Below are positions 15,236 through 53,298 of a stretch of DNA of 64,000 nt, piece by piece. A program made the position numbers and the translations under genes. Numbering within the stretch: the stretch's first letter is position 1; every line of letters begins with the position of its first letter. The stretch comes from Psammoneis japonica (lineage: Eukaryota). The notes below the pieces were generated by a model. The model searched no databases and had not been told where the DNA came from. It saw only the letters and a program-made list of their open reading frames with translations. The DNA is taken from positions 230,721 to 294,720 of the forward strand of contig QPGO01000094.1 in the NCBI GenBank assembly GCA_008632985.1. The letters run 5' to 3'.

Positions 15236-15480
15236 TGACAGAAAATGAAGATGACTGGGTGGAAGAAAACAACAACTCCTCACTGCTGTCTAAATGGCAG
15301 ATGAGTCTCCATGCAGAGACCATCACAGGAGCTGAAAGACTGGTGTCATGACATTGGTGCTGCTGTCATTGTTCTTGTGAGCCGTGTGGCTCGAAAGCAA
15401 ACCACATCGCACGATGTGCGCTGAACCAAGAGCACACATGATCATGTGTGACAAACTAAAATCTTGGTCAAATCCTGTCA
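15236..15480 (-). repeat. 3' LTR of copia A
   Basis: Direct repeat of 22056-22297, TG...CA ends, flanked by TSD and PPT. Confidence 0.9.
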
Positions 15481-18400
15481 CTCCCCAGTTTGCTTGAGGG
15501 GTCAACAGTGACAGATTTGAAGTCAGATTGGTTGAAAGCCCAGGGATCGAAGTTCCAAAACATCAGAGGACGAAGGAGGCTCCAGATTTGGGAGCAACCC
15601 CAATGCTTGCTGAGGATGTCAGCCGGGTTGCAGGAGCCTTTGACAAAATGAAACTCGAGGAAACCGGAGGCAATCGCCTCATGCACACGATGGAATGAGA
15701 GGGCGGTGTGTCGTTTGTGTGACTCGGAGTGCGGGATGGCAGCACTGTCCACAACCGACTTGTTGTCCCCAAACATGTGACATGTTTCACGAATGGGAAC
15801 ACCAAGGCAACGCAAAGTGATGCACAGATCAATGATCTGCTCAACCCACGTCCTTGCGGCAACAAACTCGGATCCATGTGCAGCAGCTTCAACTGTTGCT
15901 TGTTTCTTGGAGAACCAATCAGCCGGAAACTTGTTGAGGAAATGGAGGATGCCGGTGACAGAGCATCCAGAGATTGCAATGGAACAAGTTCGCATCAACG
16001 CAGTGTGTGGTGGTGACGAACTTGCCAAGCGGCTCGGGTGCATCTTGCGGGAGCAGCTCTTCTGCCTCCCCACACACAGATTGAGCCCAGTCATGCATGG
16101 GTTTGGGGAGGTCCGAACAGTCGGGCTCCTCGGTGCGCACTCGGAGGGCGCCATGACGCATCTTAGAGGAATCTGCAGATGCATTTGGCGTGGTCTCGGT
16201 GGCCTTGACGTGGTGCTGCATGGAAGCCAGACAGGGACATGACAGCCATGGTGATGTCAATGCAACCTGGAGACACGGCCCATTGCAGGGATCCAATCAA
16301 GGATTGGAGTTGGTGGATGCCGTCCGGTTTGAGCAGTTCGGAGGTGTCAAGCTCAGGGTGGTCACCCTTGTCAAGGGGTGAAAGCACATCAGTGCGGGGC
16401 TTCTCCCCAAAGAGGTGCACGTGGTTGTCAACCATGTGCTTGATGCACTTGCAGGGAGCAAGGCACAGAGTGCCATCTGGGTCACGGCAGGGTGTCTGCA
16501 AAAGCCTGGGGGTCCTTCATGGCGAAGGCTGGGTCGCCCACATGCACTGCCACGCATTCGCAGTGGTCGCCATTCCTGTGCAGCCAGATGTCGGGTTTGG
16601 CTTTGCATGGGAAGAAGCCTTCGGCACGCAAGCAATTGGCAAAGCATTCATGCCATCTGAGTCCGGAGCTGCGGAGTCCGTACAAAGCCTTGTGGATGAC
16701 AAGGATGTGTCCTTCCAGGTCGCCAAACTCGGGGCCTGCTGCGATGTGCAATTCTCCTTGGTCGTGGCTTCGAGGCAGGCATTCCCAATGTCAGTGGCCC
16801 AGGTCTCTAGTTCGTTGAGTTCGGCCAGGAAGATCATCCTTCGCAGGCCACGTAGAGACACTGCTCCGGAATGGACACTGTCAACAGGCACGTCTGTGAG
16901 GTGTCCATCAGCAACAAGCCTTGCTTTGTGCCATCCGTCATGTTTGACGTCGCAGACGAGGTGCACTCAGATCTTCTTGTGTCCTGATGGAGCACTGGAA
17001 TCCTTGTGGTGTCCGCAGTTGTGGAAGACCTTGCACTCATTAAGCTGAGTCATCTCAAGGTCTGTTGCGTCTCCCCACTTAAAGTTGCCGTTGCGCTCAT
17101 CAAGGGCCATGGCATGCTTGTGGTCCTGTGGCACTTCACACCCGCACTTGCATCGTGGCACAGTGTGAAAGGAGTGTAACTTGGCTTGGTTGGCCATGCG
17201 GAACAGCTTCTTCTGGCGAAGGGCTGTCTTGCAAAAACGTCTCCACCCTTCGGTTTCTAGAAGGCCGTGCTCATGTGCGTAGATGGCACAGGTGATGGGG
17301 TCGTCCTTGGCAATGATGGCAAGAGGTTCAGACGTGATCTCCCCATTCTCCCACTCAAGCATGACGTTGCAGCTTGAGCCTTTCCATGAGGGATCATGGG
17401 TTCGCAATGGTCCTTTGTGTGATGCGATGTGTCGGAACTTCCAGAGAGTGGTGTCCTCGTCTTCTTGCTCAATGCGGTGCATGATGTCATTGCAGGCCAG
17501 GACTTCCTCGCATTCGTCATTGTTGATGGAGCAAATGAACTTGACCAGTTCAGGATTGCCTCCGATTTTCCAGTCGTGGTCCTCAATGGCTTTGACGATG
17601 CGGGCTCTGTGGCATTGTCCATCCTCTTGTGGCTTCATGAGGAAGGTGCATCCCATGATGTCCTTGGGGTCAAAGACCGGCATTTTGGGCATCCTGATCG
17701 CCTCCCCATCTGGTCAATCTGGCAAATCCTTGGAGTCATGGCGGGATTTAATGACAGGGTCAGCAGATTTCTTGTCAGGAGGATCAAGACGCAGGTTTGG
17801 AGCAGATGGGTCACGGGCGGAGCGCACGTTGGAACAGTGGAGAATCTTCTGAGTGTCATCAGAAAGAATCTTGAACGTCATTTGGTGACCAACGTGTTTG
17901 GCGATGCCAACAAAGCAACCACACAATTCACGAGATTTGGGCGGCCAGTCGGAATCATCCAGGTGGCAGCACACGGGTTCCCACCATTGAAAGCGGAGGA
18001 GTGGGCTGATGTCAGGAGCAGAGCCGGACAGCCTTGGTGGGGGTGCGCCAGTGGAGCTTGGCAGATGCCGTGTGGTTGAGCACAAAACACACGCACATCA
18101 GGGTGAGCAGCCAGGTGCAAGCTGGGGACCCGAAGCGATCCATGACAGTGTCAGCCATGGTCTTCACAGTTTGGCAGCGGCATTCAGTGAAATTCTGATG
18201 CCGGTGGTGAGGCTTGCTTTGCCAACTGGAGATGAAGAGGGCACGAAGGATGACAAGAACCTTGTTGCTGATCTCAACCTGAGCACGGTCGCTGATGAGC
18301 TTGGACGGGGCACCGCGGTTACGAATGTTGTCTTCGAGGGTGTTGACAAATTCTTTGTCAGTTTTGGTGCCATGCACATCAGTGACGAGAGATTCCATGC

Positions 18401-19814
18401 CGACAAAGAGCTGGGCGCTGGTGCAACCAGAGTCAATGGCAGGGGGTGTCGGCACAGACCGTGTCGGCGGCAACGGGTTCATTGCGTCGGTGGACATTGA
18501 GAGCCGGGTTGGGTGATTTGCACGCCTTTTTCAGGTGCATGCTGGCTGGCATGTGGGTGCACTGCATCATGCAATCAAAAGTGCGGCGGACAGTGTCCTT
18601 CGGGAGAAAGCCAAAGCAGGGGCGGAAGGTGCAGATCTGGGCGGTTTCTCACCAGAACGGGCGGAAGGAGGCCGTTCAGGTGCCAGGAGATGTTGCAAGT
18701 CGCCGGGTGGCAGGGGCTTGTGCCTGGTGAAATGAGCCAGAATGGGGTTAGCATCAGCTGCATCGGCTGTGGCGTCGGATGGTGCAAGCTCCGATGCAAG
18801 ATCATGGGTGTTGGCAGGCAAGTTGATGTCGCCGTCACTGCCAAGACGGAGGTCGTGCAGGTTGACCATCGTTGAGTCATGGTGGTTGCTGGTGTGGGCA
18901 TTGCGCGAGCCAAGAATGATGGCCTTGGTGGACTGGGGCAAGGTGTCCCAAATGCGCTGATGGTCCAGCGGAATGCAACGCCATTGTTCCCTGGTGAGGG
19001 AGTTGCCACGGGTCTGTGCAGCATGAGCTTGGATGACGTCAACATCACTGTCGATGTTGAAGAATGCATCATCATGGGGGTCGTAAGGAACCAGGTCATG
19101 TTCGTAGATGGCACGGCGTGGAGCGCAAGGAGCAGTCTTGGGGGTGAACGTGCTGTCGCACTGTGCTGCAGCAGAAAGCAGAAATCCACAGTGCTCTTCG
19201 CAAGAGAGACCCTTTCCATTCTGTGTGCGGAACTGATCAGCTTGATTCTTTGCCAAACAGAGTTCTTTGACAGGATGAACGGCGTTCTCAAGCATGACAC
19301 ATTTCTGGCCAACAGAGAAGTGGTCCGCACCTGGGACAAGAGCTTCGTGCTTGTGAAGCTGGTCCTGCCAGTGAAGCATGAAGGCATGAGTGGATCCTTT
19401 CCATGTGCCATCACTGAGGCAAGCAGTGGTGAGGCACATGAGAAGGGTCGAGGACTCCAGGGATGTGCAAGTGGAAGCAAGGGCGCACTTGGAGAGGTCA
19501 CGACAGACCACTTGAGCATCAGAGGAGCCGACATGTTGACGGACAAGTGCCTTGCCTTTGTCATTCTGCAAGATCCATTTGAACACTGCAAACATGCACT
19601 TCTGTTGTTCATCAAACAGGGCCTTGTCCTCAGCTGCAGAGGGCTTGTGCGTTGGGTCGAGAGTGTGTGCGACGTCTTGGGAGCGGGCCTCTGTGATGAC
19701 GGAGGTGTGCCACGTGTGCCACTGTTTGTTGGACTTGAGAACCGCGAAGGCAAGTGGGTCACGTTTGATGCCTCATTTAAAGTCACGCACGGGATCACGT
19801 GGTTTGGGTGGCAA

Positions 19815-20854
19815 TGGGGTGTCCTGGCACGCGCGCTGGTTGGTTGGTTCGTTGGCTCGTGGAGGGAATCCTGAGGGAATTCTGCCAAATTTGTCTTGCT
19901 CGCGGGAGGATGCCTCGCACAGTGTGGTTCGTAACTTGGACTTTTCAGTCTTACAGACCAGCCGCAGCCGCTGAATGAAAACATGCCAAAAAAACAACCG
20001 CAGGGGCCACAGTAAAAATCAGCACTCCCATTCAGTCCCGGATTTCTCTTTTTTGTCGCTCCAGAAAATGATGAAAAAAAGAGCTTGGAGGTTTTGCCCA
20101 GTGCCAGCTGCAACATTTGTTGTGTACACACGACCTGCTTCGACCCACTTGACGAATGAAAACATTGAAAATGTGCACTTGCATCAGAGAAAGTGAACTG
20201 TTTCAGATTTGTCGTAGTGCCACCAACAAACTGCCGGCACGTGACGATCTGCCACCAAACTCCCAAAGCAATGATGGCGGCTGCAATTCGGGCAATCAAT
20301 TCCTCCGTCGTTGCACTGTTGAGACGTCACATTGAGACAGGGCATCATGCCAATGCCTCCAGTTTGTACGCCAACGTTTGTTGCGATGAATGATGTGGTC
20401 GTCAGCATCTTCTCGGTGTCGACGCCGAGAACGCCTTTGCCAAGGCATGCAGTGGCAGCCCTAAGAGGCAACAAAAACAACCCCGTCACAGTGCAAATGT
20501 TTGATGTGATTCATTTTTTTTGTGACTGTCGAGGTGCTAGATTAAAATTTTATTCACATGTGTCATGCCTTGAATCATGCAACGAGAAAAGGTTGTTGTG
20601 ATGCTTCATAAAATGTCCGTGTTGTGTGCAGGTGACCTGGACACATTCTGTGCACAAGACCGGATCGCATTCCACGGGACTGAGATGTTTTGACAAAACG
20701 GAAGCTCCAACCCACCGAGGGAAAATCTCACTTTGCACGGGCATTGATCAGATGGTCACACAGCTTCATGAACTCACGAACAGAAACAGAATCTTCGTGC
20801 GTGCCGCGCCAAACCAACCAACCAACCAACCAGCGCGCATGCTGGGACACCCTG
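19815..20854. mobile_element. Non-autonomous TIR DNA element inserted in gag of copia A
   Basis: ~35-bp inverted ends TGGGGTGTCCTGGCACGCGCGCTGGTTGGTTGG / CCAACCAACCAGCGCGCATGCTGGGACACCCTG; removing it rejoins gag in frame (SAPTPGL..LPPKPRDPVRDFK). Confidence 0.8.
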
Positions 20855-22055
20855 ACAAGCCAGGAGTGGGAGCAGATGGTGCTGTGCCCATGGAGAGGGA
20901 CGCTGCACACTCAGGACTAAGACAACAGTTGGTGAACTCCTCTTGTGTGAACAATTGAGGGTCATTGCTGACATCCGCGCTGCCGTGCGCTTTTGCCATG
21001 TACAGGCTAATCAACGCAGCTGTCTGTGCTTTGTAACCATGTGGCAAAGGCACATGACTGGTGCCGTCGTTGCACACAAGGGCATCCAATTGCATCGGAG
21101 TAAAAGTGAAAAGGTCCTGATGCAAATCGGTTCCATCAATGTTGAGGGCGGAGCACAGTGGACTGTCTGCGGCTTGATTCAGAACAGTGCCTAGAATGTG
21201 CTCGAGGCCATCGATTTGCTGTTGCCTGGTGAGAACCATGTTGCAACTGGGTGGGTGTCGGAACCAGCTAGAATCGGAGTGTGGGCTTGAAATGACTTGA
21301 AACTTGACTTGAATCTTGACTTGATGTCTTGAACTGTCTCAAGAGTCAGAAGCCGCTGGGCTGTGACATCCCGTTCGTAGTTGAGTGCTGAGCTTCCTGT
21401 CCGGTCCGTAGACTTGTGCCGGCATGTCCGAACCCGCAGCTGGTGATGCTTTGGGTTGCTTGAGAGCAGAGTGACGGGTTAAAAACCCCTGCTGACAAGC
21501 TGACCAGAGGTGGACAAGACCTCCGAACCGTTCTCATTTTATGTCGGTTGGATGACCCGATCAGGCCGGCCAAATTTGGCGCTGTGGAGGGATGAACAAA
21601 TGTGGGAAATGCACCCTCACCCCAACGCAGGCTGCAATCACGAACTGCTTCCTCTCACAGTTGTCCTTGTGGACCTTGTGGGACTGCAGAGGACCAGCAA
21701 TCCAGTGTGGATACAAGGCAGTAGACTTGGCGTGCGTGGAGCAGAGCCAGAGTCAGGGGTTTGTGTCGTGTGCGCGAGGATGCGAGCGGATGGATTGGTG
21801 GGATCCGCTGTGAGGAATCCGGAATCTCGGATGCTTGAGAATTTGGGAAATCCTGGTCAAACAAACATCTGGCGTTGAATGAACACATCCAACGATGGGA
21901 GGTGTTGGATAAATCCAAACATGTAGATTCAATCCAGCACCCAGCAGTGAAGAAGGTAGATGCATGCTTCCACCGCCAACGGTGCGCGTCGTCGAAAAAT
22001 TTCTCCATGACGATGATGAATGCTCAATGGACAATGAAGAGCAAGACTGTCAATC

Positions 22056-22297
22056 TCACAGAAAATGATGACTGGGTGGAAGAAAACAACAACTCCTTGC
22101 TGCTGTCTAAATGGCAGATGAGTCTCCATGCAGAGACCGTTGCAGGAGCCGAAAGACTGGTGTCGTGATGTCGGCACTGCTGTCATTGTTCTTGTGAGCC
22201 ATGTGGCTCAAAAGCAAACTACATCGCACGACTCGCGTGGAACTGAGAGCACACACAATTGTGTGTGACAAACTAAAATCTTGTTCAAATCCTGTCA
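22056..22297 (-). repeat. 5' LTR of copia A
   Basis: Direct repeat of 15236-15480, followed by TSD CAAGA. Confidence 0.9.
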
Positions 22298-25047
22298 CAA
22301 GAGCTGCACTCTTTTGTTGTCCCAACATCATTGGCCACTTTGTCATTGCTGCTGTTGACTGCAGCTCAGACGTCTTCACAATGTTTTCCCTGTCTGTGTG
22401 GGTTGGCTTCAAACCAAGTGGGCAATTTGCATTTCCCATGAAGTTGAGGTTGCTGGCAACTCTGTCCAGGCTGAGCAAGTTTGGCACCACCCAGATGTCA
22501 CACCGCATGGACTGCATTTTTTGTGCAGCAAGGGCAAGTCTCTTGAAATCTTCAAGGAGAAGACCAACATGTGTTTGAAAGCTGGTTGCCCCTCTGGTTC
22601 TTTTCTGTGTGCTTTGTCTCCATGGCAGACACCCAGTTTGCCAAAATGACTTTTCCAAAGACCTGGACTCTGTTTTCAACAAGTTCTCTGTCAGATCAAT
22701 GTTGTGTCTGCATTGAGTCACAGCACAGAGGGCCTTGGAGAAGCCTTCTCACCTGGGGCCTCTGACTGGCCATGCAATGGGCCACAAGGGTGGGGTGCAA
22801 CCTGCTTCCCACAGCTTGTTTTGGGGTTTGTCAGAAGACTTGCTGCTCTTTTGCTTCCAACAGCACAGCAATGCAAGAAAGGAGGCCTTCTAAACCTTGT
22901 GCTTTTTGCACCATGTGCTTGGTGTTGTGGGAGGAGTGTGTTGCAGGGACACCCATCCAGCAACCCACAATGATCCTTTGCCATCACAGGCTGGGGTGCT
23001 CTGTCTCCCATGCCCAAAAGCTGGATTTGGCAGAACTCTTGCATTTCACCAAAACAGCACACTTGCAACAGCAGAGGATTCTTGGTGAGAGCTCATTTCT
23101 GCTGCACTGCTGTGACCTGTGGTCATGTCACATCTTGCAGCTTGACAACAGCAAGGTCTTTGCCAAGAAATCTTCCTCCTGTGCAGTTGCCCTGGCTGAG
23201 TTGTAGTGGAGAGCAAAGAGATGGGGTCATCAGGTGGCTGCTGCTCTCTCTCTCTCTCTCTTCATCTTTGTTGGAGAGTTCTCCCTCCTCGCGTGCAGCC
23301 ATGAGATCAAGCAACATTGCCACACTCTCATGTGCAAGCAAACAGCACCAAGCACTCCTTTGCAATGCAGTGCACCCCAACATGCCAGCCTGTGACTCGC
23401 AACTCAGCCATTTTGCAAAGCCCTCTTGGACTTGTTCCTTGCATTGTCCACCAGCTGCTGTGCAGCATCCTCAGATGCTGTCCAAGCGGAAACTTGATCC
23501 CCTGCATTTTTCAACACAGGAGCAGCCCTGTCCTTCTGAAGAACATTTTGACAATGTGGCCTTGTTGCCCAACCCCCACCCCTCTTGGTGCTGCCAACGT
23601 GGTGCACTTTTGCCAGGCATGGTGGGATGCCAGCCAGAAAATGCATGTTTTTGTCTGTTCTTCCACTGTGTTCTGTGGAGCCACACAGTGGCACTGGCAG
23701 GTTTGGTGACAACAACACAAGGAATTTTGACAAGTTGATGTGTGCCCCACATGGCCCAGCTTTGTTGATTTGGTGCACCAGAGACTTGCAACAACCAGAC
23801 TCTCCATTGCAAGTCAAGCCAAAGCTGCAATGTGGGACAGAAGCTGCTCTCACTCCCAAAGCCCAAACTGGCATTGACAAGTGCCAAAACATCCAGGTGA
23901 TGAGGCTGGTGTGCTCCAAAAAAGGCACCTCTCTTTGCTCTTAACATGACAGTCATGGTGGCTGGAGAGCAAGCTGAGAAGTGGTTGGCACAGGCAAATT
24001 GTCATGCCTGTGGTTGCCCCCCCCCCGCCATGTGTGCAACAAAAAAAAGGTCTGCCCCTGCTCCTTCTTGACAGTGATCTGAGTGACACAATTGTGCAGA
24101 TGACATTTGGTGCAGCTGCTTTTCTGCAGCTCTTTCCTGTGCTGCCCTGGTGCCACAAATGTGACATCATTTTTGTGCAGCTCTTTGCAAACAGCTCTGC
24201 AATGTGAGGAATGAATGTGGGTCAAGAAGCCTGCGGCACTCACTCTTGAGTGTGATTCTCAACAGCACCCAGAAGAGCTGATGCCTGAATCAATGGACAC
24301 ATTTTGGCACGTTGTTCACCCATGAAAGGCACCCCAATGTGAGGGCACAAAAACCTGACAGCACTTGAAAGTCACTGAAATTGTCAACAAGCCTGTCAAT
24401 CCATGCTGAACAAAGGAGAGGCAATGTCTGCAAATTGTGAACAAAATGCAGCAGTTCCAACAACATTGTTTCTTCTGTCCTCGTGAAGCCAAAGTGCAGT
24501 GTGCATTGACAGACTTGCACTGGACAGCTCTAAAAACACTTTTGATTTTGTGGCTCATCATTTTCAAGGAATCTACAGATGGTTTGGAGTGCAATCTGGA
24601 GAATTGCCCCAGGTTTGTTGGCAGTGCATGGTGCACTGCAGTTTGTGTTAGATCCAATGTTGGCAGGGACAGATGAGTTGGCCCCTCTTTTTTCCTTGGC
24701 AGCTGCCTCTTTTCTTCAAGGAGGGGCCACAAAAGGCCACCACCCATGACCCCTCTCTGCAAGACTGCTCCCCCCAACTGGCCCAGCCCTGCTGGCTTGA
24801 GAAGACTCAACACTTGTTTTGCAGAAGGCCAGGGGGGTGAGACTTCTCTCCCCATGCCATGGCAACAGTGCTGGAGATGCTTTTTGAGGTGTCACAACTG
24901 TTGTCAGCTCCACTCTGTCTGCTTTGAACAGAGACACATCATTGTCAAATGCATCTGTCCTGTCTGGTGCATTGCCATCCTTTTTCTCAGTCTGCCATCA
25001 AACCATGTGCACTTTGTCAGTGAGTGTCTGTGGCTTCTGTTTTGTTG

Positions 25048-28000
25048 TGACAGACATCCGAGATGGGGAGCACACTCCCTTGTGTCGGACAGACTAGCAT
25101 GGACAGCATGGAGAGATCCGATGATCTCTCCTTTGCTCACTTTCTTTCTCATCCAGCACACGATTGTCATCTGTCCTAGACATCCGTTAGATTGTCCTGA
25201 TGCGCTAGTCTGTAAGGTTGTGAGCAGCAGTGCACTGTTCCTCTTCCTCTACACTCATCTGTTGCAACGCCTGTTGTGTGATTTGGCGGCTTTTTCTTCG
25301 TTGAAATCGTCATCATTGTCACAGCTGTTTTTTCACCTCTCGATTTGTGATCAAATGACCACTGCAGAACACATGCCAGAGCTCTACGTGGGAATTTGAT
25401 TTTTTTCCCGCGCAACCATGGTGAACAAAAATCAAAACGCCATCGATTTGACCAAGATCAAGACAGTGCGGGTTGAATTCAGCCCACATGATCGCTTGCC
25501 CGATGCCCGTGCTTTCCTGAACACCCTTTGTTTGGACGCGATCCCTGCTCCTGAAGATCTTTTGGATGGATTTGCCCCTCAAGGCCTCAAGAGCGATGCT
25601 CTTGCCATTCTCCGTCACAAGATCATTCAGAATCTCATCATCCCTGAAGCCACCCTGACCAAAGATCTTGCACGAATCGGACCGATCATTGAAAAGGCTC
25701 CTCTCTTTGCAGCCACCCCTCAAGGCTCCCCGGTTCGTCTGAACCTCAGCACTCTTCAGAATGCTGTGGTTGGAGCGATCACAGAGAACCACAGCACCAC
25801 AAAGGTGTGTGTTGGTGCTTTGTGTTTCCATTTCAGTCCTGATTTCCAGCATCATGATTGCTGGGATGACACCTCAGATGATCCGCATCCAGTCCCACTG
25901 GCTGCTCCAAGTTCTGCATCCCCATTGATTGCTGCTGCAGGTCCCACTCCTGAAGACTTTGCTGAGGCCCCAGCCACTCACTTGCATGGTCCAAAACAGT
26001 TTGAGCAAGCCATGACAAATGCATTGAAGAACTCTGCTCCCAAGGTGTCGTCTTCTGCACCGTCTGCCATGACTGCTGCTGGTGTGGCTTCTTCATCAAC
26101 CACTGCCAGTGCCACACACACCTTCAATCTGAAAGGACTTCCAAAGGATGTGCCAGCCTGCTGTCAGCACAAGGAAGCTGGGAAAGCAGCACTTGGCAAA
26201 TCTCTGGTGCCCCGCAAGTCTGGAAACCTTTGTTGCGAGGATGGCACTGAGCGTCTCATCCTCACTGATGGTTCACTTTTTGTTCATCGCACTGACTGGG
26301 ATGCAAAATCATTTCTTCGTGATCCTCTCACTTGTGATGACATCTCTCCTCAAGGAATCCGTGCATGGTGCATTGCTGCAACCCAACAAGCCTCGGCTTG
26401 TGGCACACACATGCATCCTCTGTGGTGTTTTATCAAGGATGGTGGAAATTGGGGTTTCACCTGTGGTGATGATCCCACCGATGATCTGCCTCTCCGGATG
26501 ATGGTGGCACTTGAAAGAATGAAACTGACTGTCTTCCAGCACATTCAGAAAGTTGGAATTTTTCCGGCAGACTCCAAGCACCCTGACATCGTTCACCAAT
26601 GTTGTGGTGATGGACACACGGCTGTCAAGATGATTCTCTTTGACATCCCACCGATTTGGATGAAGCGTCCATGTGAGTTGATCAAGAGCTGCCCGCACCA
26701 AAACAATCTTACGGTCCTCAGCTGTTGTGCTCCATTCAGAGACTGCCTCCAGCTATGAGCTGTCATCTCCAATGTTGATGCATCTCTTGATGACCCTGGT
26801 GAGCTTGATGTCTTTCTCAGCAATGCCCGCTGTGGCGAGCACCTTCACCGTAAAACAGCGGACGCCCAGGAAGACAAGACCAAACAACACAAGTTCACCC
26901 AGAAGAAGATTGTTGAAACTGTTAGTGCGATTCTCAAGGAACCGGACAGCCCAGCTCTGCGTGTCAAGGACCCTCCCAAATGTCCTCCACGTCATCTTCA
27001 CACTTCGCCTCCTCCTTCTCTCGCAGCTCCTGTTCGCGGTCTTGCCTCACTTCCCCAGGATGAAGTTTCTACTCCGCCTCCAGCGATTGAAGAGCCTCCC
27101 AAGGAATCTGACTCTCCTCCCACGGAAGAACCCACGGAAACTGTGGAACATTTTGTGAATGAACTTGCTGCTGTGGATGTTCCTGCAGATGATGATGCAC
27201 AAGCCCTCCATGGTGTCTACAAGGCCTGCATCTATGGGATCAAGTCCTTGCCTGCCATTGCACAGAACTGTCCATGTGTTGTTTGTGGCAACAACCACTT
27301 TTCCATGAGTGTCCTGTGTTGAACAATGCTGAGTGCCTGCGCACCCATCTTGTTCGGTTCTCCCAGTTTCTTCAACGTGACCAGCGTGCCCGTGATGCAC
27401 TTAAGTCTGGCACGGCCAAGAAGGATTTTTCCCAGGGCCACTGTCATGTTTGGACAAACAATGCCGCCCATCCTCCTCCAATCCGAAAACTCCTGCAAGC
27501 GGGGTAACTGTGAAAGAGGGTCCAAACGACTTGTTGCCTTCTGCTGCTCCTCCTCTTTCACCTGTCTCATTTGCTGCCCTTCTTTCGAGCTCGACGAAGG
27601 CTGGCACTCCTGATCCCAAGACAATTCCTGATGATGACCCTGGCAATCACAATCAGGGGAGGGAATTCGATCCTCCCACATTGGATGCTGATGCTCCATT
27701 GTCCACTGATCAAGACCAAGAATTTGAGCATCTTGATGTGACTGACACCCAGCATTTGTCGCCTCTCAGTGCCGCGTGCATCTCCCCGATTTTTTCTCCC
27801 CCGGAGTCACCTACGACCTTTGCATCCTTGGCTGCCCCAGTCATTCCCATCAATCATGTGCTTCGTGATTCAACGACACATCGTGCACAGATTGATGCTG
27901 GTGCTTGGGCATCCTGTGCAGGGGACAAGAACCTCCTCCACACCTGTGCTCCTTTTGGACCGGACAACCCATGCCCTTTGAAGATGCTTCCGGCTGCTGA

Positions 28001-31000
28001 AGGCTCTGATGCGGTTCCTCATGGCTTTGGTCACCTGCAGGTGCCTGCAGACAATCCTGAAGGCTTTCTTCTCGTGTGCACTTTTTACCATCCCAGTCCA
28101 TGTTCCACTTTGATTGATGAACGTGATTTTGCGCGGGCTTCTGGTTTCAAATCTCAGTCCATTCGCTCCGAGCTCCTTGAGAAGACATGTGCCAATGGCA
28201 CTTGCACTTACACTGCTTCCACTGACACACAAGCGGCAGTTGTCCATGGCGTGCTTCGACATGGCAAGGCATTCACACAACCCCTGGTTTCTCCATCTCC
28301 GTCTGGCATCCCTTCGACATCGACGACCCCTGACTTGTCCTTGGTTGATGACATTGATGATGCATGTCAACGTGCAGTCTTTTTTGTCAACATCCAACAA
28401 GGTCCATCTGATCCCTTGCTGATGGATGCTGAGCTGTTTTCGATGCAGTGTGACTCGGCTCCGTTGTCCACCCCTGCTCCTGTCCGCTCTCTCAAGGTTG
28501 AGACTGAACGTCTTCTGTGGCATCAACGCCTTGGACACCCCAGTGATCACTGCTTGTTCAATGCTCACAAGCATGTCAAGGGCGTCCCCAAGTTCCGTCA
28601 TGCCAATCCTGTCCTTGATGTGTGCCCTGCATGTGTCCAAGCCAAGCAAGTCAAGACTCCTGCTGGACCAAACACGACTTGGAAGGTGACCCAACCACAC
28701 CAAGGTCTCACTGTAGACTTTGCTTTTGCTGGCCAGACTTCCAAGAATGAAGCCCACAAGGTTGACCATCTTGGACACAATGGTGAAACCTGTTGGATTG
28801 CTGTCTATGATCATCACATGCGGATGCTCCATGGAGTGGCAAGGGTTTCAAAGGCCAGTCCTCTCAAGTGGCTTTGCCGATTCTTGGATCGACATTCACC
28901 AAATTGTCGTGACAAATGTGTGTTCATGGACCAAGGTGGGGAATCGTGCAAAAACCCCAAAGTTCGTGACCTCTTTGAATGAGAATTCCAGTGTGACATC
29001 TGTCCTTCTGGTGCTGGCGCATCCAACCAATGTGGGCCTGTTGAATGCTCACATTCAACTGTTGAAAACGCGATTCGCGCAATTTTAATTGGTGCCAACC
29101 TTCCGATCCGATTCTGGCCCTGTGCATTTTACCACTGCCTCCGCATCAAGAATGCCACTCCTGCAAAAGATCAAGATGTGGCACCCATCACTCTTGCTGC
29201 CAGAAAGGTCGAAGATTTTACCACTCTGAAGACTTTCGGATGTCGAGCATGGTCCAAACGGTCCACTGCTCGTTCTGCTGCCTTCCGGACCAATTCCAAG
29301 AAGAGTGTCTTCCTTGGTTGCCTTCCCAACACCCTCAAGAATGTCATGTGGTGGGATCCTGAGACTGATGAAGTCAAGACGGCCAAGCATGTGCGCTGCG
29401 ATGAAGGCACGAATGACCCATTTTTGGATCAACTCCCTCCCAATGCTGTCCATTTGCAGCGTGTGGAAAATGGTCAGCCTTTTCCAGCTGAAACACAGGA
29501 CACCACCGTTCCTGTGTTCACGTCTTCATCGAATCCGTTTGCTGCGACTGTTGCATGTACCATGAAACGTCCTCCAAAGGACCCTGCTCATGGTTTTGGA
29601 TTTTCTCAGTGTGCGCTAATGGACCGTGTCCATGTGTCGGAAATCAAGCAGCGCAGTCCTGCAGCTTCATTGTTTTCTTCCCTCCATGCCACTCGTAACA
29701 AGATTGTGGGTGCATGCGTTGTCTCTGTCAACAAGCGTGAAGTCTTTACTCCTTCGGATGCTGAAGAGGCCTCATCTCAGGTCTTCCATGATGTAACTCC
29801 GACTTTCGAGATTGCTTTTGCGCCGGAACGACGATTGGATTCTTGCACTCTTAACAAGGCATTTGAGGAAGCGGAGTCATTTGAGCCTGACACTGTGGAG
29901 GACGACTCTCATGTTCCTGAACTTGCTTTGGAAGATGTGCGATCTATTGCGGCTCTTCTCTGTCCTGATGATGATTTTTCGGATGAGGCCATTCCTGCAG
30001 ATGTCTTTTGTGCACATCTCAATGCGATTGGCTCCCGCTCACTCACTCCGGAGGAAGCTGCTCTTGACCATCTCACCCGTGCCAAGCTTCGTAAACTTGA
30101 CACATGGCCTGAATGGGAAGAAGGCGAGCAGCGTCAACTGGACCAATTTCATGCCCTGGGCATGTGTGGTCCTCCGCAACCACGTCCCCCTTGCGCGAAC
30201 GTCACGCGTCCGCATTGGGATTGCATGGCAAAGCCGGATGGCCAACGTCGCTCCCGACAATGTGGTGATGGTTCCAAGTCGGCAATGCCGGCCTTGCATG
30301 AGTTGACTTCCACCTGTTCGTCGTGTGTGGAACGTTCTGTCAAAAAGATGTTTTTCGCTCTCAGTGTGGCTGTGTCGCATCGTGTCTTCGGAGGCGATGC
30401 ACGGGATGCCTGTGCTCATTCTCCTGGCCCATCCCAACCGGTTTTTGTTGCCATTGATGATGCACATGCTGCCTGGCATGAAAAGAGATTTGGCAAGAAA
30501 GTGCCCCGCCATTGTGTTCTCCCGCTCAAGCATGCTCTCCAAGGCCATCCTGAAGCTGGTGTCCTCTGGGAGAAGCACATCAACTCGATTCTCACGGGTG
30601 CAAAACTTCTTTTCCGCAACACTGCTCATGACAAGTGCATCCATTCCGGTGAACATGATGGTGTCAAGGTCCTCCTCCTTTGTCAGGTTGATGATTTTGC
30701 TCTTGCTTGTCCATCTAAAAAGATTGCAAAAGAGATCTACGACCACATTGGCAGGGCTCTCCAGATGGAGAATGAGGACACTCCTCCCTTCAAGCATTTG
30801 GGCTTGGTTGCTGAATTCAATGGCATTGATGTCATTCAAAATGACGACTCAATCACTGTCAACATTGCCAGCTGCCTTGACCATGTTTTCAAGACCCATG
30901 GTTGGGATGCTCCCGCTGCGCATGAGTCTGATTCTGATTTCAAGGCTGCACCTGTTCCGGTTGATTGTGTTCCTGATCTGTGTGCCACTGAAGGTCCTGA

Positions 31001-32103
31001 AGAGGGTGCACCCAAGCATGATGCTCTTGCTGAGTCCCAAGGATTCTTGCGCCGTTCTGTCTTGGGTGAACTGGTCTTTGCCCACTCCTGTTGTCGTTTG
31101 GATGTTGGCTGTCCCATTGTCACCTTGTCCAAGTTTTCCAAGGCACCGGCTGAGCTCCATTGTGATTCACTCAAGCGCATGGCCAAGCATTTGCGGTGCA
31201 CCAAACATTGGGGACTGACCCACAAGAAGTCTGGGCGCGATCCCGGCCTGCCTCCTCGCGATTTTGAATGGCTTGAGGATGACCCATCTCTCCTGGATTT
31301 TCCTCGTGCTGTTGACCTTTTCCAACTTCTTGGATTCATTGATGCGGCACATGGCAATGAACTGTGGCATCGCCGTTCCACCACTGGACACGCGCATGTC
31401 CTTGCTGGTGCTGCGATTGACTGTCAATGCCGCATGCAAATGATTGCCGCTGCTAGTTCCACGGAAGCTCAGTTCCTCGCGGCTGTAACTGGTGCGAAAC
31501 AGACCCTGCACCTCCGCACAATTCTGGAAGAATTGGGTTTTCCCCAACGTGATCCCACTCCCTTGCACATTGACGACTCCTCTGCCATCCAGATGATCAA
31601 CAACAAGGTGCCTGCGGAGCGATCTCGTCATGTTGACATTCAACATTTTGCCATCCAAGACTGGCGTGACGCAGGCAAGATTGTCACTCGACATGTCCCG
31701 GGTGTCATTGACCCTGCTGATGCACTGACCAAGGCCGTGGGTTGGATGCTCCATTCCCGCCATGCCCGCCACTTGATGGGACACTGCCGTTGATTGTCAT
31801 CGGGTTTGTTGTGGATTGAGTCTTGGGTGTGTCTCTGTTTCATTTGTTTTGTTCTTTGCTGTTCTGGTCCTCTCTTTTTGTTCGGATTCTCTCTTTCTTT
31901 CTTGTTGAGCATTGCATTGCTCATCAGGGGAGGGTGACAGACATCCAAGATGGGGAGTGCACTCCCTTGTGTCGGACAGACTGGCATAGACAGCATGGAG
32001 AGATCCGATGATCTCTCCTTTGCTCACTTTCTTTCTCATCCAGTGCACAATTGTCATCTGTCCTGGATGTCCGTTAGATTGTCCCGATGCCGCTAGTCCG
32101 TAA
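25048..32103 (+). mobile_element. Ty1/copia LTR retrotransposon B, full length, inactivated
   Basis: LTRs 25048-25215 and 31935-32103; TSD TGTTG (25043-25047, 32104-32108); PBS-like GGTTGTGAGC at 25216; PPT AGGGGAGGG ending 31934; gag from 25418; LWHQRLGH..CPAC integrase Zn finger; RT (ALQGHPEAG, QVDDF); RNase H (DAAHG, SSTEAQF, DPADALTK) ending 31793. Confidence 0.95.
25418..31793 (+). pseudogene. gag-pol of copia B, broken by in-frame TGA stops (26756, 28980) and a frameshift near 27300
   Basis: ORFs 25418-26758, 27274-27507, 27450-28982 and 29178-31793 are collinear with copia gag-PR-IN-RT-RH. Confidence 0.85.
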
Positions 32104-32948
32104 TGTTGACTTCATTGCACCAGCCACTGGGAGGTGTGGAGTTAGCTGACTTGATTGAGCTGTTGTCAACAGTGACTTTTTCCTCTTCTGGCTCTGAATT
32201 GAAGGCTTGGCATGAAAAGACACTCCTTTGCACTGGCACATCTTGTGCCAAAGGCACAGTGGTGGCCATCAGGCCCTCCACTTCCCAATGCAATGAACAT
32301 GCTGTGGTCAAGTGCTCTGGCAAAAGAGCTGCCTCAGCTTTTCCTAAAAAAAACAACCATCACAGGAAAAAACAGGGGGGAGAGGGACAGAAAGCAATGA
32401 TGCAGCCTGCCTTGTGCCAAGAAAACAAGCGGGGCTGGTTGCTGTGAATGTTGAAAAAAGTTGGTGCAAGCTCAAGAACATCAGAAAGAAACAGATGGTG
32501 GCACCCCTCTCACTTCTTGTGGGAAAAAAAATGGCCCAGAAATGTTTGGGATTTCCAGAACACAAGCCAAGGGAACAGCCAGTCGGTCATCCACAAGATG
32601 CCACTCAAAAAGAGCTGGCCAACTGCACATGTTTTTGTGTTGTGTGTCCCTCTTTGGTGCACAGCCAGTCCCAACAAGCTCCTTTTGCAGATTGGCCAGT
32701 GTTGGGGGTTCATCTGTTACAAGCAAGGCAAAACAAGCAAAGTGAGAGAGCAGCTGGCTGTGGGCCCATGATCTCCAAAGCAAGCTGCCATCTGTGCCCA
32801 CCACCTTGCTTGGGTGTGCAGTCTTGCAAAGCTCCTCCCACGGATTGTGGGCATCAGACTCACACATTGCAAGTGAGACAAACTGTGCCACTTTGCTTCT
32901 TCTTGACTCAGGGTGTGGAGAAAGCACAGCTGTCAGCCAAAGGCACAC

Positions 32949-32955
<7 letters not shown>

Positions 32956-32980
<25 letters not shown>
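32956..32980 (+). repeat. (GA)n microsatellite
   Basis: Direct reading. Confidence 0.9.
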
Positions 32981-35900
32981 CAGTTGGCTGCAAACCACAA
33001 CAAGCTCAAACAACTGGCTGCACACACATGGGCTCACTCTGAGAGCTGTCTGTGCATGAGCAGGGTTGCCCAAGTTAGAAACTTTTGAAGCCTGTTTGAC
33101 TCATGTGTGCTGATGGGCATCTTGAAGAATGACTTTGCAACACAACCAACAACAGAATGACAGACCCTTTCACAATTGCTGACATGCACAGACAGCTCTG
33201 GCTGGCTTTCCCACTCAGGCTCATTCCAGCCAAACAGTTGCACACAGACTCTAAAGGGATTCAATGTTGATGAAGGAAACTCCAACAACAACCCTTTGCA
33301 TGGCAGCTGGATTTTTGCAGCACACAGTGTCATGTCCCATCACTTCCATCTCAACCTGGTGCCATCTTTCAAGCAAAATAACTCATCTTAAATCCCTGAA
33401 AACAAAGTCATGTGTGCAGGAGCATCCAGCTCCCTCTTTTCTCCACAAGAGTGGCCCAGCTGCCTTGCTCCACTTCTTCTCATTGTCCACAATCTTTGCT
33501 CTAGAAAGTCTTGTCACAAACCCTGTGGAGAGCCAACTGTGCACCTTGTTGTCAAACCATTGGCCCCTTTGTCTTGTTGCCACTCTGTTGGCTGCAGCCA
33601 AGACCTCTCGCTGCACAGTTTCCCATCTCTGTCAGAGTTTCCCATCTCTGTGAGAGGATTGACTTCAAACCAAGATTGTCACAACTCCCATTTCCCATGA
33701 AGTCAAAGTCAGTTGCTCTGTCTGGGCTTGCCAGCCAGATGTCACCAGACAGGTCATGTTTTTTCTGCAACAATGACAAATCTTTTGGAATCTCTCCAAG
33801 AAGAAGACCACGGTGTTCACAGGTCACTTCCTTGCAGTTTTTCTGCATGTGTTTCATCTGCTTGGGGCAGTTGGAGCTTTTGTGCTGGCATCACTTTTGG
33901 GGCATCTGGAGTGTTGAAGCCTTTGTGCCATCATCACTTGTGGTGGCTGGAAATTTTGCACTGGCATTGCTTCGGGTGGTTGGAGCTTTTGCACTGGTGC
34001 CACTTGGGGTGGTTGGAGCCTTTGAGCTGTTGTGCCATCATGCACAGTGGTTCGAGGCTTTGTGCCACTGGTGCTTGAGGTGGTTGGAGCACTTTGACTT
34101 TTAAAATGCACTTGTGGGACATTTTTGCATGTGGAAAAGTTGCTGCAGTCAACGTGGAATTGGAAGAAGCTTCACATCATGCCCCCCGCTGCTGTTCAGC
34201 TGTTGTCATTTCTTGGCTCACCATTTGCCAGACTGTTGTGCACTTGCTTCTGGTTTGATGGATCTTTGTGATTGCCAACACACAACAGCCCAACTTTGTG
34301 CTCAAACCAGTGCTTTTGGACATCAACGCAGGTGCAACTGAGTGTGATCTCTTGTTTCTTTCTGCTCTTTTTGTGGCATGGCACAATGGCCAATGACCTT
34401 TGTCACATCCAATGATTCACGCTGCATCAGATTTTCACCTTGGGCACCTGGTGACACCAGATGGGCAGTGCAAACATTTTTTCAGAAATTTCGCAGTCCG
34501 CGCCATTTCAGCATTGTTCCATGGACAAGACATGCTGAGTCATGCTGCAAGCATTGCCTTTGTCAATGACTGCAATGATGGATGCACTGCACACCAGTTG
34601 TTTTGGTGCAGCTGCTGTGGTGGAGAAAATCCAGGTGTTGGAGGGCTTTCAAGACCAAACACGCCATCAAAGTTTTCTGGATCATGTCTTTGCAGAGTGC
34701 AGCCAAAAGACAATTCCATTCAATGAGAGCATTGCATTGCATTGCATCGGACTGCTTGGGGAGCAACTGTTCATGCAGGAGACAAGGGGAGATGCCTCTC
34801 TTGAGGTTGCACAACATCACAGTGCAGACGATGACAGATGCCGCAAAAGATGACAAGACATGCCAAAGATGAAGATTGTGAGAAGATCTCTTGCTTGGAT
34901 CTGAGCAACAAATTGGGCCAATGGTCAATGATGTCACTCCAACCACTGTCACTGGAAGACTTGGCAGACATTTCTTCCAGAAGAAGATGTGACAAAATCT
35001 GTGAGACAAAATGAGTCATCACCTTCTGTGAGTCAGACTTGTGACTCAACTGTGGCTCATCTCTGGGAATTCATGTGGATTTCACACAAACCAAGGTGTC
35101 CTTTTTCAGCAACCAATTGACTCGTGTGTTTTTGAGTGGACATGATGGAACAAAGAAAGTCCTTGTGCATGAAAATTTAAAGCCCAGTGAATCAGCTGAG
35201 ACAAGCACTTTCCCCCGATGCTTTTTTGTCACCTGCAACCAATCCAAAAACATTTGATGAGAATTTTGAGTCAGCACTGATTTTGATGGCAATGAGCCTT
35301 TTCATGTTGAGCTGCAGCAAAAGTGTGGCCACCAGTTGAGAGCACCACAAAAAATGCAGCCTTGTTGACAACAATGTCAAATGACATTGAGACCAGTCTG
35401 TCCCAGTGGCGTGCTCCACATGGGACACATCAACAGCACAAGCTCACACTCACAAAAGCAAGGGCTGCACCACTGAATGCCTCAATGATTGTGTGAATGA
35501 TGGCACAGAATTAGCACAAAGCATTGCTTGTTTGTCATGTGCAGGGGTGGCCCATCATGCACACAAGTGCTTTTGTGCAAATGGCTTCTGCCACATTTAC
35601 AAAGAGGCTGGTGGCACAACTCTGCCAGGTGCCTCAATGGTTCACTTGACCACTCATTGGTTGTCCAGTGCCTTGGCTGCACGCATCACCCACCACCAGT
35701 GGGGGAGGGCTCATTGAGCTCTGTTTCAAATTTGTGTGGTGAAGTCTTGACCAAGCAGCAGCTGGAAAATTGATTGTGTGCCCCACTTGTTGTGTGCAAG
35801 ACCCAGACAAGTGACCCATGTGAGTTTGAACAAATTTCATGTTTCCATGGTCTCTCTTCAGTAAAATGGTGTGAGCAAAACATGACACTTGGGGTTTTCT

Positions 35901-36545
35901 GTTCATGTGACAGGGCATGGGCACAGTCTTGTTTTGGTTCAGAAGAAGGAAGGGCTCCAGTTTTGGGTGGTTGAGACAAACACTTGTGAGCAAGAAAGAA
36001 GAAGTGTGGGCAGTGTGTGCCTTCTTTTCAGCACCTTGCAAAGAAGCTGAGTGTGAAAAGTTTAGATGATGAACAAGAAAGGCATCAAATGATGAAGATC
36101 CCTTGCCTTGGGACCCATGCCCTGTGATTGCAATGAGGTTTTAACAGACTCTCCAGGTGTTTCTCAACAAAGCACCTCAGAGGAGACATGCTGTTTTGGG
36201 CTGCAAGCCAGAAAACACTCCCAAAATCATTCCACAGGGCAAAACAAAACTCTGAATTGACACAGATTTGGTTGGGTTCTGCCAGGCCATGTAGAAAATG
36301 AATGGGTTGAAATCTCCGGCATGCCCATTTTCACATGATGAGAGATCAGCAGAGAGCTTTTGGAGACTGTGGTGTCATTGCTGTTGTTGTTTGCTCTGTC
36401 CTCATTGTGCAACAGAACAGATTGTGAGAACAGGAATCAACTGACACCATCACAGCTGGTGGTGCTGATGATTTTTTTGCAGCTGTTGAATGGGGACAAG
36501 AGGTGAATTGAGTTCAAAGCATTCTTCAAGCAGGACAGGACTTGA

Positions 36546-37030
36546 GTGCTGCAGGATGGCTCACTGGAGGACACTCCAATCTTTTTGGCTTTCAGAGTCC
36601 AAAATGATGACATGTTGGAGTTCCTCCTGGGGTGCAATGCCAACGTGAACCATGTTTTGACACACGCTGAATGTCACCATTTTGTGCCACTGCACAACAC
36701 CACTTGCTCCAGACAAATGCCCACAGCAGCCAACAAAGCACAGTTGCTGCTGTCCCATGGGGCTGAAGTGGATGCTGCAGATGACAGGGGCTCCACGCCT
36801 CTGCGCGCAGCTGCCTCATGCAGTGATGGCACTGTTGCCAAAGTCTTGACACAAAATGGCTCTGATTTGAGTGCAGTTGACAGATGTGGAGACAGACCCT
36901 GCTGCACAATGCATGCTTTGGCATGCATGAAAATGCAGCATGGGTGCTGATTGAAGAAGAAGCAAAATTTGAATGCCAGTGACAGCACTGGGTGCTGCAC
37001 TCTGACTCATGTTGCAATCAGAATGGCCTG
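36546..37030 (+). pseudogene. Decayed ankyrin-repeat gene fragment
   Basis: TPIFLA..MLEFLLGCNANVN, LLLSHGAEVDAADDRGSTPLRAAA, VLTQNGSDLSAVDRCG ankyrin-like repeats, then stop or frameshift. Confidence 0.75.
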
Positions 37031-37941
37031 CAAACCCATGAGTTTGGTTTTGATGGAAGCTCATGCAAAACATTTGTTGGCTGTTGACGGTGCCCATGAT
37101 GATGGTGTGTGGGTGCAAGCACACCAGTGGGACACAAGAAAACCCAAGAAGGCTGAGTTTGCTGTTTTCCATGCTTCAACAGAAACCCAATTTGTTTGAC
37201 TGCTTGCAACAAGAGCCGAATCTAAGGAAGTGCAAGAGGTCCAGCTGATTTGTTCCTTCCTTCCCATGATTCAGTGTGCTTTCAAACCACAGAAAAACAG
37301 TTTGTTGTTCTTTGAGCAGTGCCAGTTTGTTTCTGTTTCAGAGCATGCTGCAATTTTCCACTCGCACAAAGTTCATCACAAATGGTGTTGCATTCAATGC
37401 CGTGCTTGTTCCTCAAAGGGAGTTGGACTAGAGCACAAAGCAGAGCACCTCATGTCTCTAAAGAAGTCAAAAAGTGGCATCCTCTTTTTGAAATGAACAA
37501 TTGGGAAAAGACAATTGAAGTCCAGAAATGATCACGAGAAATGCGTGTGCCATTCTGTTGCAGCTGGGCAATCTTTTGTGTCTTTCATTTGATCAAGAGG
37601 AGCAGAGTCTTGTGCAACACATTGCACAAACAAAAAAAATGTCAACACTGTGCTGCATCTCATGGCAAACTTGTTTGAGCAGCACAAACCCCTTCGACTG
37701 CCATTTGCCCACACATGCTGGCATCACAGAGCAGTTGTTTTGAGTTGACACTTCAAGCAATGATCTGGTGCACATGACAACTTGGTGCACAATGTCAGGC
37801 CACAATCTTTTCTGGAAAATTTGAGTGCAGCATTCCTTGGAGCTGTTCACGCTCATGTTGTTGTTGGCACTGTCCTTGTTTGTCTCCAGTGCAATGTGTG
37901 CAACATCTTTGAGCTTTGCGGATGATGCTGTTGCTGTCAAC

Positions 37942-37970
37942 TGTTGTTGTTGTTGTTGTTGTTGTTGTTG
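37942..37970 (+). repeat. (TGT)n microsatellite
   Basis: Direct reading. Confidence 0.9.
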
Positions 37971-51341: not shown

Positions 51342-51699
51342 AAGAACAAGCACAAACGAAAGTGGAGTGAAGTGCAAAAAGTGAAAATTGTGAGAGATTG
51401 GATTTTGCTCAATCATTTTGGGATTCTCGGAACAAGTTCTCAATGGCCCAAAGCTTCTGTGCTGCTTCTGCAGACCAAAGGCTTTTTGGAGAATGTGTCC
51501 TCCATGACAACAGATTGTCTGGATGTGATTGCTGCTGACACATGAGATGTCAACATCGTCAAGTGATTGCATTCACAATTTCCGACATCCAATCATTTCT
51601 GTGTGACTGATCTGTCCTTTGCACGAACCCACAATTGACGTGTGATTGAGAGCACAACAATGTTGATGTGTGAACATGTGCACAAAACAATGCACATTG

Positions 51700-53277: not shown

Positions 53278-53298
53278 GGGGATGTGTTGTCTTCGAAT

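Follow-up and report, generated by a model that had tools for sequence, protein, structure and literature searches.

The stretch of Psammoneis japonica DNA analysed here, called the window throughout, comprises 64,000 nucleotides (contig QPGO01000094.1 of GenBank assembly GCA_008632985.1, forward-strand positions 230,721 to 294,720) and contains two domains from which the dinucleotide TA has been nearly erased. The left domain holds two copia retrotransposons, copia A and copia B, both inserted into an older matrix, and our subject is the order in which TA and CG were lost from these layers of DNA. The features on which the argument depends are listed below in window positions, with dinucleotide levels as observed/expected ratios (o/e), long terminal repeats as LTRs and target-site duplications as TSDs.

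14600..41300: left TA-erased domain, TA o/e 0.03-0.15 across units; contains copia A, copia B and the older matrix
14600-15230, 22303-25042 and 32109-41300: pieces of the older matrix, one matrix that hosts A and B
22303..25042: older matrix between A and B; 6 TA and 11 CG in 2740 bp, TA o/e 0.04, CG o/e 0.06
32109..41300: right-hand piece of the older matrix, beyond B; TA o/e 0.03-0.05, CG o/e 0.09-0.13
15236..22297, minus strand: copia A, the older element
15236-15480 and 22056-22297: copia A LTRs
15231-15235 and 22298-22302: copia A TSD, CAAGA
25048..32103, plus strand: copia B, the younger element, with LTRs, TSD, purine tract and pol
25048-25215 and 31935-32103: copia B LTRs, 168 bp
25043-25047 and 32104-32108: copia B TSD, TGTTG, 5 bp, identical on both sides
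27510..31784, plus strand: copia B pol, a single frame with one stop and no frameshift over 4.3 kb
31927-31934: copia B purine tract, GGGGAGGG, just 5' of the 3' LTR
44690..55100: right TA-erased domain, left edge at ~44690

Copia B shows the marks of a Ty1/copia element, namely direct LTRs (92% identical to each other), a 5-bp TSD, a purine tract and the domain order gag-pre-integrase, integrase SH3, RVT_2. The initial annotation had described it as structurally complete, and the LTRs, TSD, purine tract and one-frame pol bear this out; the end given there, 31800, does not hold, the element extending to 32103. Copia B aligns full-length to 22 copia polyproteins, and its pol is 49% identical to the intact homologue P0001. 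In all, 36 relatives of the polyprotein were found, the named ones coming from Nitzschia inconspicua and Cylindrotheca fusiformis, and the family carries QVDD in place of YxDD. Its RVT_2 domain scores 24.6 bits, under the Pfam cut-off of 31.6, because of the mutations described below. Copia A belongs to a distinct family with polyproteins of ~1,900 residues, and a hidden Markov model of the B family matched it in two short C-terminal pieces only. Its pol lies in six pieces of alternating frame and its LTRs are 88% identical. Copia A is the older of the two, since it has five frame changes against none and an LTR identity of 88% against 92%; since the TSDs show that both inserted into the matrix, and A is the more damaged, the order of age, oldest first, is matrix, A, B. 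In sequencing run X1, summed contig depth is ~1,300-1,800 over copia B and reaches ~55,000 over copia A, as expected of multi-copy families, whereas the erased matrix is single-copy today (depth ~62-87, against ~65 for unique DNA). In the same run, 15366 is linked to 22189 in contigs that point to LTR-to-LTR (solo-LTR-like) forms of the copia A family.

Measured per kilobase, TA o/e is 0.00-0.26 in both erased domains (~14.6-41.3 kb and ~44.7-55.1 kb) and 0.36-0.87 in the genic flanks. By unit, it is 0.03-0.15 throughout the erased domains except in the short copia B LTRs (0.43), against 0.59-0.63 in the genic flanks, where CG o/e is 0.98-1.10. CG o/e is 0.55 in the copia B interior (25221-31933, TA o/e 0.08), 0.64 in copia A and 0.06-0.19 across the matrix units. 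The counts on which the initial annotation had built its contrast are exact: segment 30001-30600 of copia B holds one TA (at 30092) and 35 CG (12+17+6), and matrix segment 22801-23400 holds two TA (22891 and 23204) and three CG. Dinucleotides other than TA, CG, TG and CA hold their levels in erased DNA. Taken together, the four make up 0.229-0.258 per base whichever of the 18 units is considered, and 0.238-0.240 in genic DNA, with a gain in TG+CA of 0.093 per base for a TA+CG loss of 0.099 in the matrix, and of 0.060 for 0.064 in copia B. Since the pyrimidine-purine (YpR) sum is constant and the gain equals the loss, the TG/CA-rich texture of this DNA was made by transitions among YpR steps, and the proposal that both losses converge on TG and CA is borne out by this mass balance.

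Which dinucleotide was lost first? The window was divided into 128 bins of 500 bp, each classed by its TA and CG level. All 45 TA-normal bins are also CG-normal. None of the 58 TA-normal or TA-mid bins is CG-low, two of the 13 TA-mid bins are CG-mid, and the 70 TA-low bins comprise 6 that are CG-normal, 37 CG-mid and 27 CG-low. The combination of normal TA with depleted CG was found in none of the 128 bins. Mean G+C is 0.491 in the TA-normal bins and then, among TA-low bins, 0.530 where CG is normal, 0.503 where it is mid and 0.482 where it is low, the rise and subsequent fall predicted if TA loss precedes CG loss.

Loss was also scored at conserved codons, with intact homologues as the anchor and a column admitted when 10 or more homologues covered it and 70% or more of them agreed; copia A was scored against its own separate set of 30 homologues. 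The 28 Tyr columns of copia B now read Tyr in 2, Cys (TGY) in 14 and His (CAY) in 9, with three Phe dropped, which gives a TA loss of 23/25 (92%, 95% confidence interval (CI) 74-99). Its 54 Arg columns retain CGN in 30 and read TGN in 7 and CAN in 3 (one AGR and 13 others dropped), a CG loss of 10/40 (25%, CI 13-41). For copia A, 44 Tyr columns yield 2 Tyr, 24 Cys and 13 His (5 others dropped), a TA loss of 37/39 (95%), and 59 Arg columns yield 32 CGN, 12 TGN and 10 CAN (four AGR and one other dropped), a CG loss of 22/54 (41%, CI 28-55). The contrast between TA and CG loss is significant in each element (p ~1e-7); over agreement thresholds of 0.5-1.0, TA loss ranges from 0.82 to 1.00 and CG loss from 0.08 to 0.30 in B and from 0.41 to 0.43 in A. 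TA loss is not a by-product of CpG decay, just as the initial annotation had argued: CG loss in the same copia B codon set stands at 10/40 (Fisher p = 1e-7), and six bins are TA-low and CG-normal. CpG loss is the slower of the two and follows age, as had also been proposed, at 25% in B, 41% in A and ~90% in the matrix, with p = 0.13 for the step between A and B alone. The comparison by element covers units inside this window, in three age strata. Relative to genic DNA, 9-14% of CG and 0-30% of TA, depending on context, survive in the matrix, a loss of ~90% for both. A simple exponential puts the ratio of TA to CG loss rates at 8.8 in B and 5.7 in A; because TA is saturated, these ratios are lower bounds (at least 6-9).

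The direction of change is equally clear at the codon level. In A and B together, 60 of the 64 informative Tyr columns became Cys or His, consistent with A:T>G:C transitions, and the Arg codons lost CG on both strands (19 TGN, 13 CAN). Where the first position of a conserved I, M, T, N or K codon changed from A to G, the preceding base is T in 21 of 28 cases. The Tyr content of copia B pol is 0.4%, against 2.4-4.3% in 22 homologues. Descent from a family that was TA-poor by nature was considered and is ruled out, conserved Tyr codons having turned into Cys and His.

Three stops had been listed as probable products of CGA>TGA change. The stop at 16967-16969 (minus strand) in copia A is confirmed as such, Arg being present in 29/30 homologues. 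That at 26756-26758 (plus strand), in the gag-side frame of copia B, has C in 9/9 contigs from other genomic copies, i.e. CGA, as had been supposed; it lies opposite Ser in a weak, 25% homologue match. The TGA at 28980-28982 (plus strand), the sole in-frame stop in B pol, stands opposite an alignment gap in 21/22 homologues. Copia A has a second in-frame stop of the kind seen at 16967:

19773-19775, minus strand: in-frame stop in copia A, Arg in 20/30 homologues

Comparison of the window with other genomic copies gave 453 differing places, and the best-supported 40 were classified. Among these 40, 11 are CG in the other copies and TG or CA in the window, 3 are TA kept by the other copies, 1 is a CG that the window retains, 8 rows form 4 CA/TG doubles and 17 are unclassified.

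TA erasure prefers an A with a 3' pyrimidine (T-A-pyrimidine) and spares YTAR, where R is a purine and Y a pyrimidine. Survival by context was calculated as observed TA over the number expected from genic DNA.

RTAY (ATAT, ATAC/GTAT, GTAC): A+B 6/176, matrix 0/147, right block 0/135 (0-3% survival)
Mixed context: A+B 45/260, matrix 12/257, right block 14/191
YTAR (TTAA, CTAG, CTAA/TTAG): A+B 23/100, matrix 25/84, right block 22/69 (23-32% survival)

The proportion of YTAR that survives does not change with age and, within the matrix, exceeds that of CG (9-14%). The claim that TA conversion is nearly saturating must therefore be divided: it stands where, on either strand, a pyrimidine comes after TA, and fails for YTAR, which is refractory and outlasts CpG. 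The codons tell the same 3' rule, for Tyr codons after a pyrimidine became Cys 21 times and His 7 times, and conserved A-initial codons that now follow T are G-initial in 19/21 cases when the second base is T or C and in 2/5 when it is A. In the matrix, a composition-based direction test finds that essentially all of the TA lost from mixed contexts reappears as YTGY/RCAR. CG survival also depends on flanking bases, in a manner unlike that of TA. The 5' 1.75 kb of copia A (20300-22052), upstream of the part that aligns to homologues, holds 22 TA and the remaining 4.8 kb holds 20; of the 22, 19 sit in refractory or mixed contexts.

Were the elements stripped of TA before or after they integrated? 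ADAR hyper-editing and APOBEC3 hypermutation inactivate retroelements through clusters of deaminase transitions, ADAR preferring a 5' U; both act before integration on RNA or single-stranded cDNA and so mark one strand. Under a comparable scheme, A and B would have been dead on arrival, their TA loss an instantaneous birth defect. The state of copia B would suit this, TA loss there being saturated in an element otherwise almost undamaged (a single stop, no frameshift over 4.3 kb) and the LTRs retaining more TA (o/e 0.43) than the interior (0.08). The paired LTRs speak against it. LTR counts are small: the copia B pair has 3 shared TA, 3 one-sided TA/TG sites, 4 shared CG, 4 one-sided CG, 3 double differences of CA versus TG (0.9 expected from the one-sided counts, P = 0.06) and 1 transversion; the copia A pair has 2 shared TA, 1 one-sided TA, 3 shared CG, 7 one-sided CG and 7 such doubles against 2.1 expected (P = 0.006). 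Since TA-type differences separate the two LTRs of each element, these changes came after integration, and the excess of doubles implies a class of sites struck independently in both LTRs. In the alignment of the B pair, all 3 doubles have R_Y flanks, the fast TA context. The LTRs put post-insertion CpG loss at an estimated 0.33 for B and 0.54 for A, against 0.25 and 0.41 in the interiors; because the two are alike, the interiors were intact around the time when the elements inserted, and their TA was lost later.

Strand symmetry weighs against such an origin as well. At Tyr codons after a purine, where both strands are favourable, A and B together show 17 Cys and 15 His, a symmetry that speaks for a double-stranded DNA substrate and argues against one-strand editing of RNA or cDNA. 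The TAs retained in the copia B LTRs, moreover, lie in refractory or mixed contexts, and the single-copy matrix, with hexokinase and ankyrin relics, has been erased too. Unlike ADAR or APOBEC3 activity, the changes here affect both strands equally, follow integration and include relic DNA that is not retroelement-derived. Loss of TA before integration is thus very improbable in our judgement, and we proceed on the reading that erasure acts on inserted double-stranded DNA.

The relics bear on a further alternative, in which age is not the variable at all and the CpG contrast between copia and matrix reflects differences in methylation or targeting, or a matrix that was intrinsically CpG-poor. 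Of the matrix open reading frames (ORFs) tested against Pfam, 80/89 had no match, including every one of the 28 from 14560-15236 and 22299-25045. The nine with Pfam matches all lie in 32105-41321; the ankyrin and hexokinase matches are credible and the rest are weak (E ~0.007).

36546-36947, plus strand: ankyrin-repeat relic, Pfam E = 3e-9
38145-38787, minus strand: hexokinase relic split over two frames (Pfam E = 2e-6 and 9e-6), with matches to PDB hexokinases

The hexokinase relic had no relatives in a word-indexed search, and its PDB alignments do not extend far enough for Tyr and Arg to be counted. Both relics are host-type genes that lie within the old matrix and have been stripped of TA and CG. 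That the matrix holds such relics counts against this alternative, and the matrix gain in TG+CA of 0.093 per base matches the 0.099 predicted had it started with genic levels of TA and CG. Codon-anchored CG loss also climbs from B to A alongside indels and LTR divergence, and of the 3 places where the window departs from the unique matrix contigs, 2 show CpG transitions. In favour of the alternative, raw CG o/e is higher in the older A (0.64) than in B (0.55), a CG-rich 16-bp array persists within an erased domain, and there are three strata only. On balance, we regard it as improbable that something other than age sets the CpG levels.

The array just mentioned lies in the right erased domain, in one copy of a recent duplication.

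47339-49200 versus 49200-50234, plus strand: young ~1-kb duplication, copies 96-98% identical, differing chiefly by CpG transitions
47763-47910 (9 copies) and 48325-48594 (17 copies): 16-bp tandem arrays, unit GACACCCCGACTCGCC

The arrays are CG-rich and TA-free, and nowhere else in the erased domain is CpG as dense. Over ~1040 bp, the two copies of the duplication differ at 12 one-sided CG, 4 CA|TG, 1 one-sided TA and 9 other places. As the copies were already TA-poor and differ mainly at CpG, CpG decay goes on after TA erasure has ended. With 12 one-sided CpG sites and 9 retained against 9 other changes, CpG sites have changed ~50-100 times as often per site, on small counts; more generally in the erased domains, CpG transitions seem to be tens-fold faster per site than other substitutions, again from small counts.

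The genic flanks and the edge of the right domain are as follows.

43109-44278: PRP38 gene, genic flank, TA o/e within the genic 0.59-0.63
44650-45200: edge segment, 550 bp, straddling the ~44690 edge; 3 TA, 25 CG, CG o/e 0.81
55113-56234: amino-acid-kinase gene, genic flank, TA o/e within the genic 0.59-0.63

TA erasure is restricted to foreign or inserted DNA, and the adjacent PRP38 and amino-acid-kinase segments are spared. The edge segment begins ~400 bp past the end of PRP38 and is the least CpG-decayed of the TA-erased pieces in the window. Because TA erasure removes TAA and TAG and leaves TGA as the sole stop, long spurious ORFs abound in the erased domains: 26 ORFs of at least 200 aa overlap 14000-56000, a few of them from flanking genes and many spurious, in several frames. 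One of these, a 583-aa ORF at 18578-20326 (minus strand), was rejected as a spurious frame with no relative among 1.84 billion protein representatives.

Could one mutator account for both losses? A single repeat-directed deaminase, strong on TpA and weak on CpG, would make CpG loss part of the same system. CpG depletion is indeed confined to TA-erased DNA, for no bin among the 45 TA-normal or the 13 TA-mid is CG-low, and just two of the latter are CG-mid; the young duplicate, with its ~50-100-fold excess of change at CpG on small counts, also fits, and a preprint on Bigelowiella natans (Mettrop et al., bioRxiv 10.64898/2026.01.13.699255) cites ADAT2 editing of both A and C in DNA. Against this stand the six bins and the 550-bp edge at 44650-45200, which are TA-erased with normal CG, the flank dependence of CG survival, which is unlike that of TA, and the differences in chemistry and target position between TpA and CpG loss. 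A single mutator therefore seems to us unlikely, and separate processes remain the preferred account.

Several observations weigh against a fast, context-dependent TA loss followed by slower CpG decay. The copia B LTRs keep 9 TA (o/e 0.43), and TA loss there, naively estimated, comes to the same 1/3 as CG loss. The context rule alone reconciles these TA-rich LTRs with fast TA loss, since 6/9 of the survivors are YTAR and 3/9 are in mixed context (GTAA twice, ATAG once). One of the three one-sided changes in the same LTRs, ATAG>ATGG, contradicts the T-A-pyrimidine preference. The composition-based direction test misfits the T-A-pyrimidine rule in A+B, for which genic DNA is a doubtful baseline, and more broadly the ancestral composition of the elements may not have been the genic one against which survival ratios were taken. 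The sequence of events was read from no more than three age strata within a single window; the difference in CG loss between A and B has the expected sign and is not significant (Fisher p = 0.13); and composition alone fails to rank the elements, raw CG o/e being 0.64 in A and 0.55 in B.

With these points taken into account, the order, direction, two-strand symmetry, post-insertion action and context rule observed here are probably the work of two separate transition processes that act at very different speeds on silent inserted DNA in this diatom-like genome. The first would be a TpA-targeted A:T>G:C hypermutation that strikes both DNA strands after insertion, favours the A of 5'-T-A-pyrimidine-3' and removes ~90-95% of TA while only a quarter of the CpGs decay. 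The second would be a slower decay of CpG to TpG and CpA, probably by deamination of a putative methylated cytosine, that continues in the TA-stripped DNA until CpG is ~90% gone. Both would preserve pyrimidine-purine steps and so lead to a TG/CA-rich end state, with G+C going up and then back down. By analogy with the proposal made for B. natans, the chemistry of the first process may be enzymatic adenine deamination in DNA; cytosine methylation may likewise take part in the second, and the whole may serve genome defence.

The altered base could instead be thymine. Oxidised T, for example 5-hydroxymethyl- or 5-formyl-uracil, can pair with G; if T were oxidised within 5'-R-T-A-3', A:T>G:C change would again result, and the context rule, taken from the other strand, would be identical. 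The sequence cannot say which base of the pair was altered, because T-A-Y is R-T-A on the complementary strand. The sole published proposal, that for B. natans, is nonetheless adenine deamination (10.64898/2026.01.13.699255), and we consider a modified thymine an unlikely substitute. Returning to adenine, we suggest with reserve, as a possibility slightly short of even, that a diatom enzymatic DNA editor converts A to G in T-A-pyrimidine on both strands and is the first transposon-inactivating step, ahead of methyl-CpG decay.

How do these processes relate to known systems? Methylated CpG decays in silenced transposons, and methylation of transposons occurs in diatoms. The CpG changes described here resemble such decay, with CG>TG and CG>CA on both strands (19 TGN:13 CAN), progression with age and continuation in old DNA; unlike plain methyl-CpG decay, they form a second, slower layer over TA erasure and show an apparent tens-fold excess (small counts) above expectation. 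Repeat-induced point mutation (RIP), as seen in Neurospora and other ascomycetes, produces local, near-saturating transitions in repeated or foreign DNA, on both strands and with a dinucleotide preference, that destroy coding capacity. It converts CpA to TpA (C>T), enriches TpA, lowers G+C and is linked to duplication and the sexual phase. TA erasure shares with RIP its local, near-saturating, two-strand transitions, its dinucleotide preference and its loss of coding, and is opposite to it in direction, TpA giving CpA and TpG, as a mirror image. A test for RIP itself (CpA>TpA, TpA enrichment, AT-rich products) failed, TpA being depleted 10- to 20-fold and G+C reaching 0.53 in TA-low/CG-normal bins.

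The closest parallel is B. natans. According to the preprint, whose Discussion also names RIP, integrated giant-virus and virophage DNA in that organism undergoes TpA>TpG/CpA hypermutation, a signature measured directly in mutation-accumulation lines at a rate ~1000-fold over background per generation, and an ADAT2-like DNA adenine deaminase is proposed (10.64898/2026.01.13.699255). On that account, both systems show near-exclusive A>G/T>C change at TpA in foreign DNA only, with a deficit of TpA and a surplus of CpA+TpG as the long-term trace. They differ in host, diatom-like here, and in target, LTR retrotransposons and old single-copy relic DNA here. Erasure is also near-complete in the window (TA o/e 0.03-0.12) against a Rho of 0.45 reported in that text for the B. 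natans viral region, and the rate obtained here is a relative one, TA loss being at least 6-9 times CpG loss, where the preprint gives a rate per generation. The terms CpG, diatom, context and trinucleotide do not occur in its main text, so that the order relative to CpG decay and the 3'-neighbour rule are absent from it; its supplements may list flanking bases. Full-text literature searches found no account of TpA erasure in diatoms nor of its order relative to CpG decay. Judged against the main text of the preprint, the basic TpA hypermutation is already known from B. natans, and what is new here is the quantified order of loss, the coincidence of the CpG clock with insertion time and the context rule.

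What would these processes mean for the genome that carries them? LTR-identity dating would be strongly biased in erased domains. If the order of loss holds genome-wide, TA erasure would be the primary, rapid means of transposon inactivation in this diatom lineage and CpG decay a later overlay, and the pair would offer a practical two-speed clock for dating insertions. The T-A-pyrimidine specificity, which spares TTAA and CTAG, makes both the search for an enzyme and the comparison with B. natans directly testable. Should the more tentative reading of an enzymatic editor prove true, TA loss by context together with CpG loss would date every dead insertion at two speeds, and the trinucleotide rule would be a fingerprint for the responsible deaminase or thymine modifier. 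Shared with a chlorarachniophyte, the process would then be an old and widespread eukaryotic defence, the mirror image of RIP.

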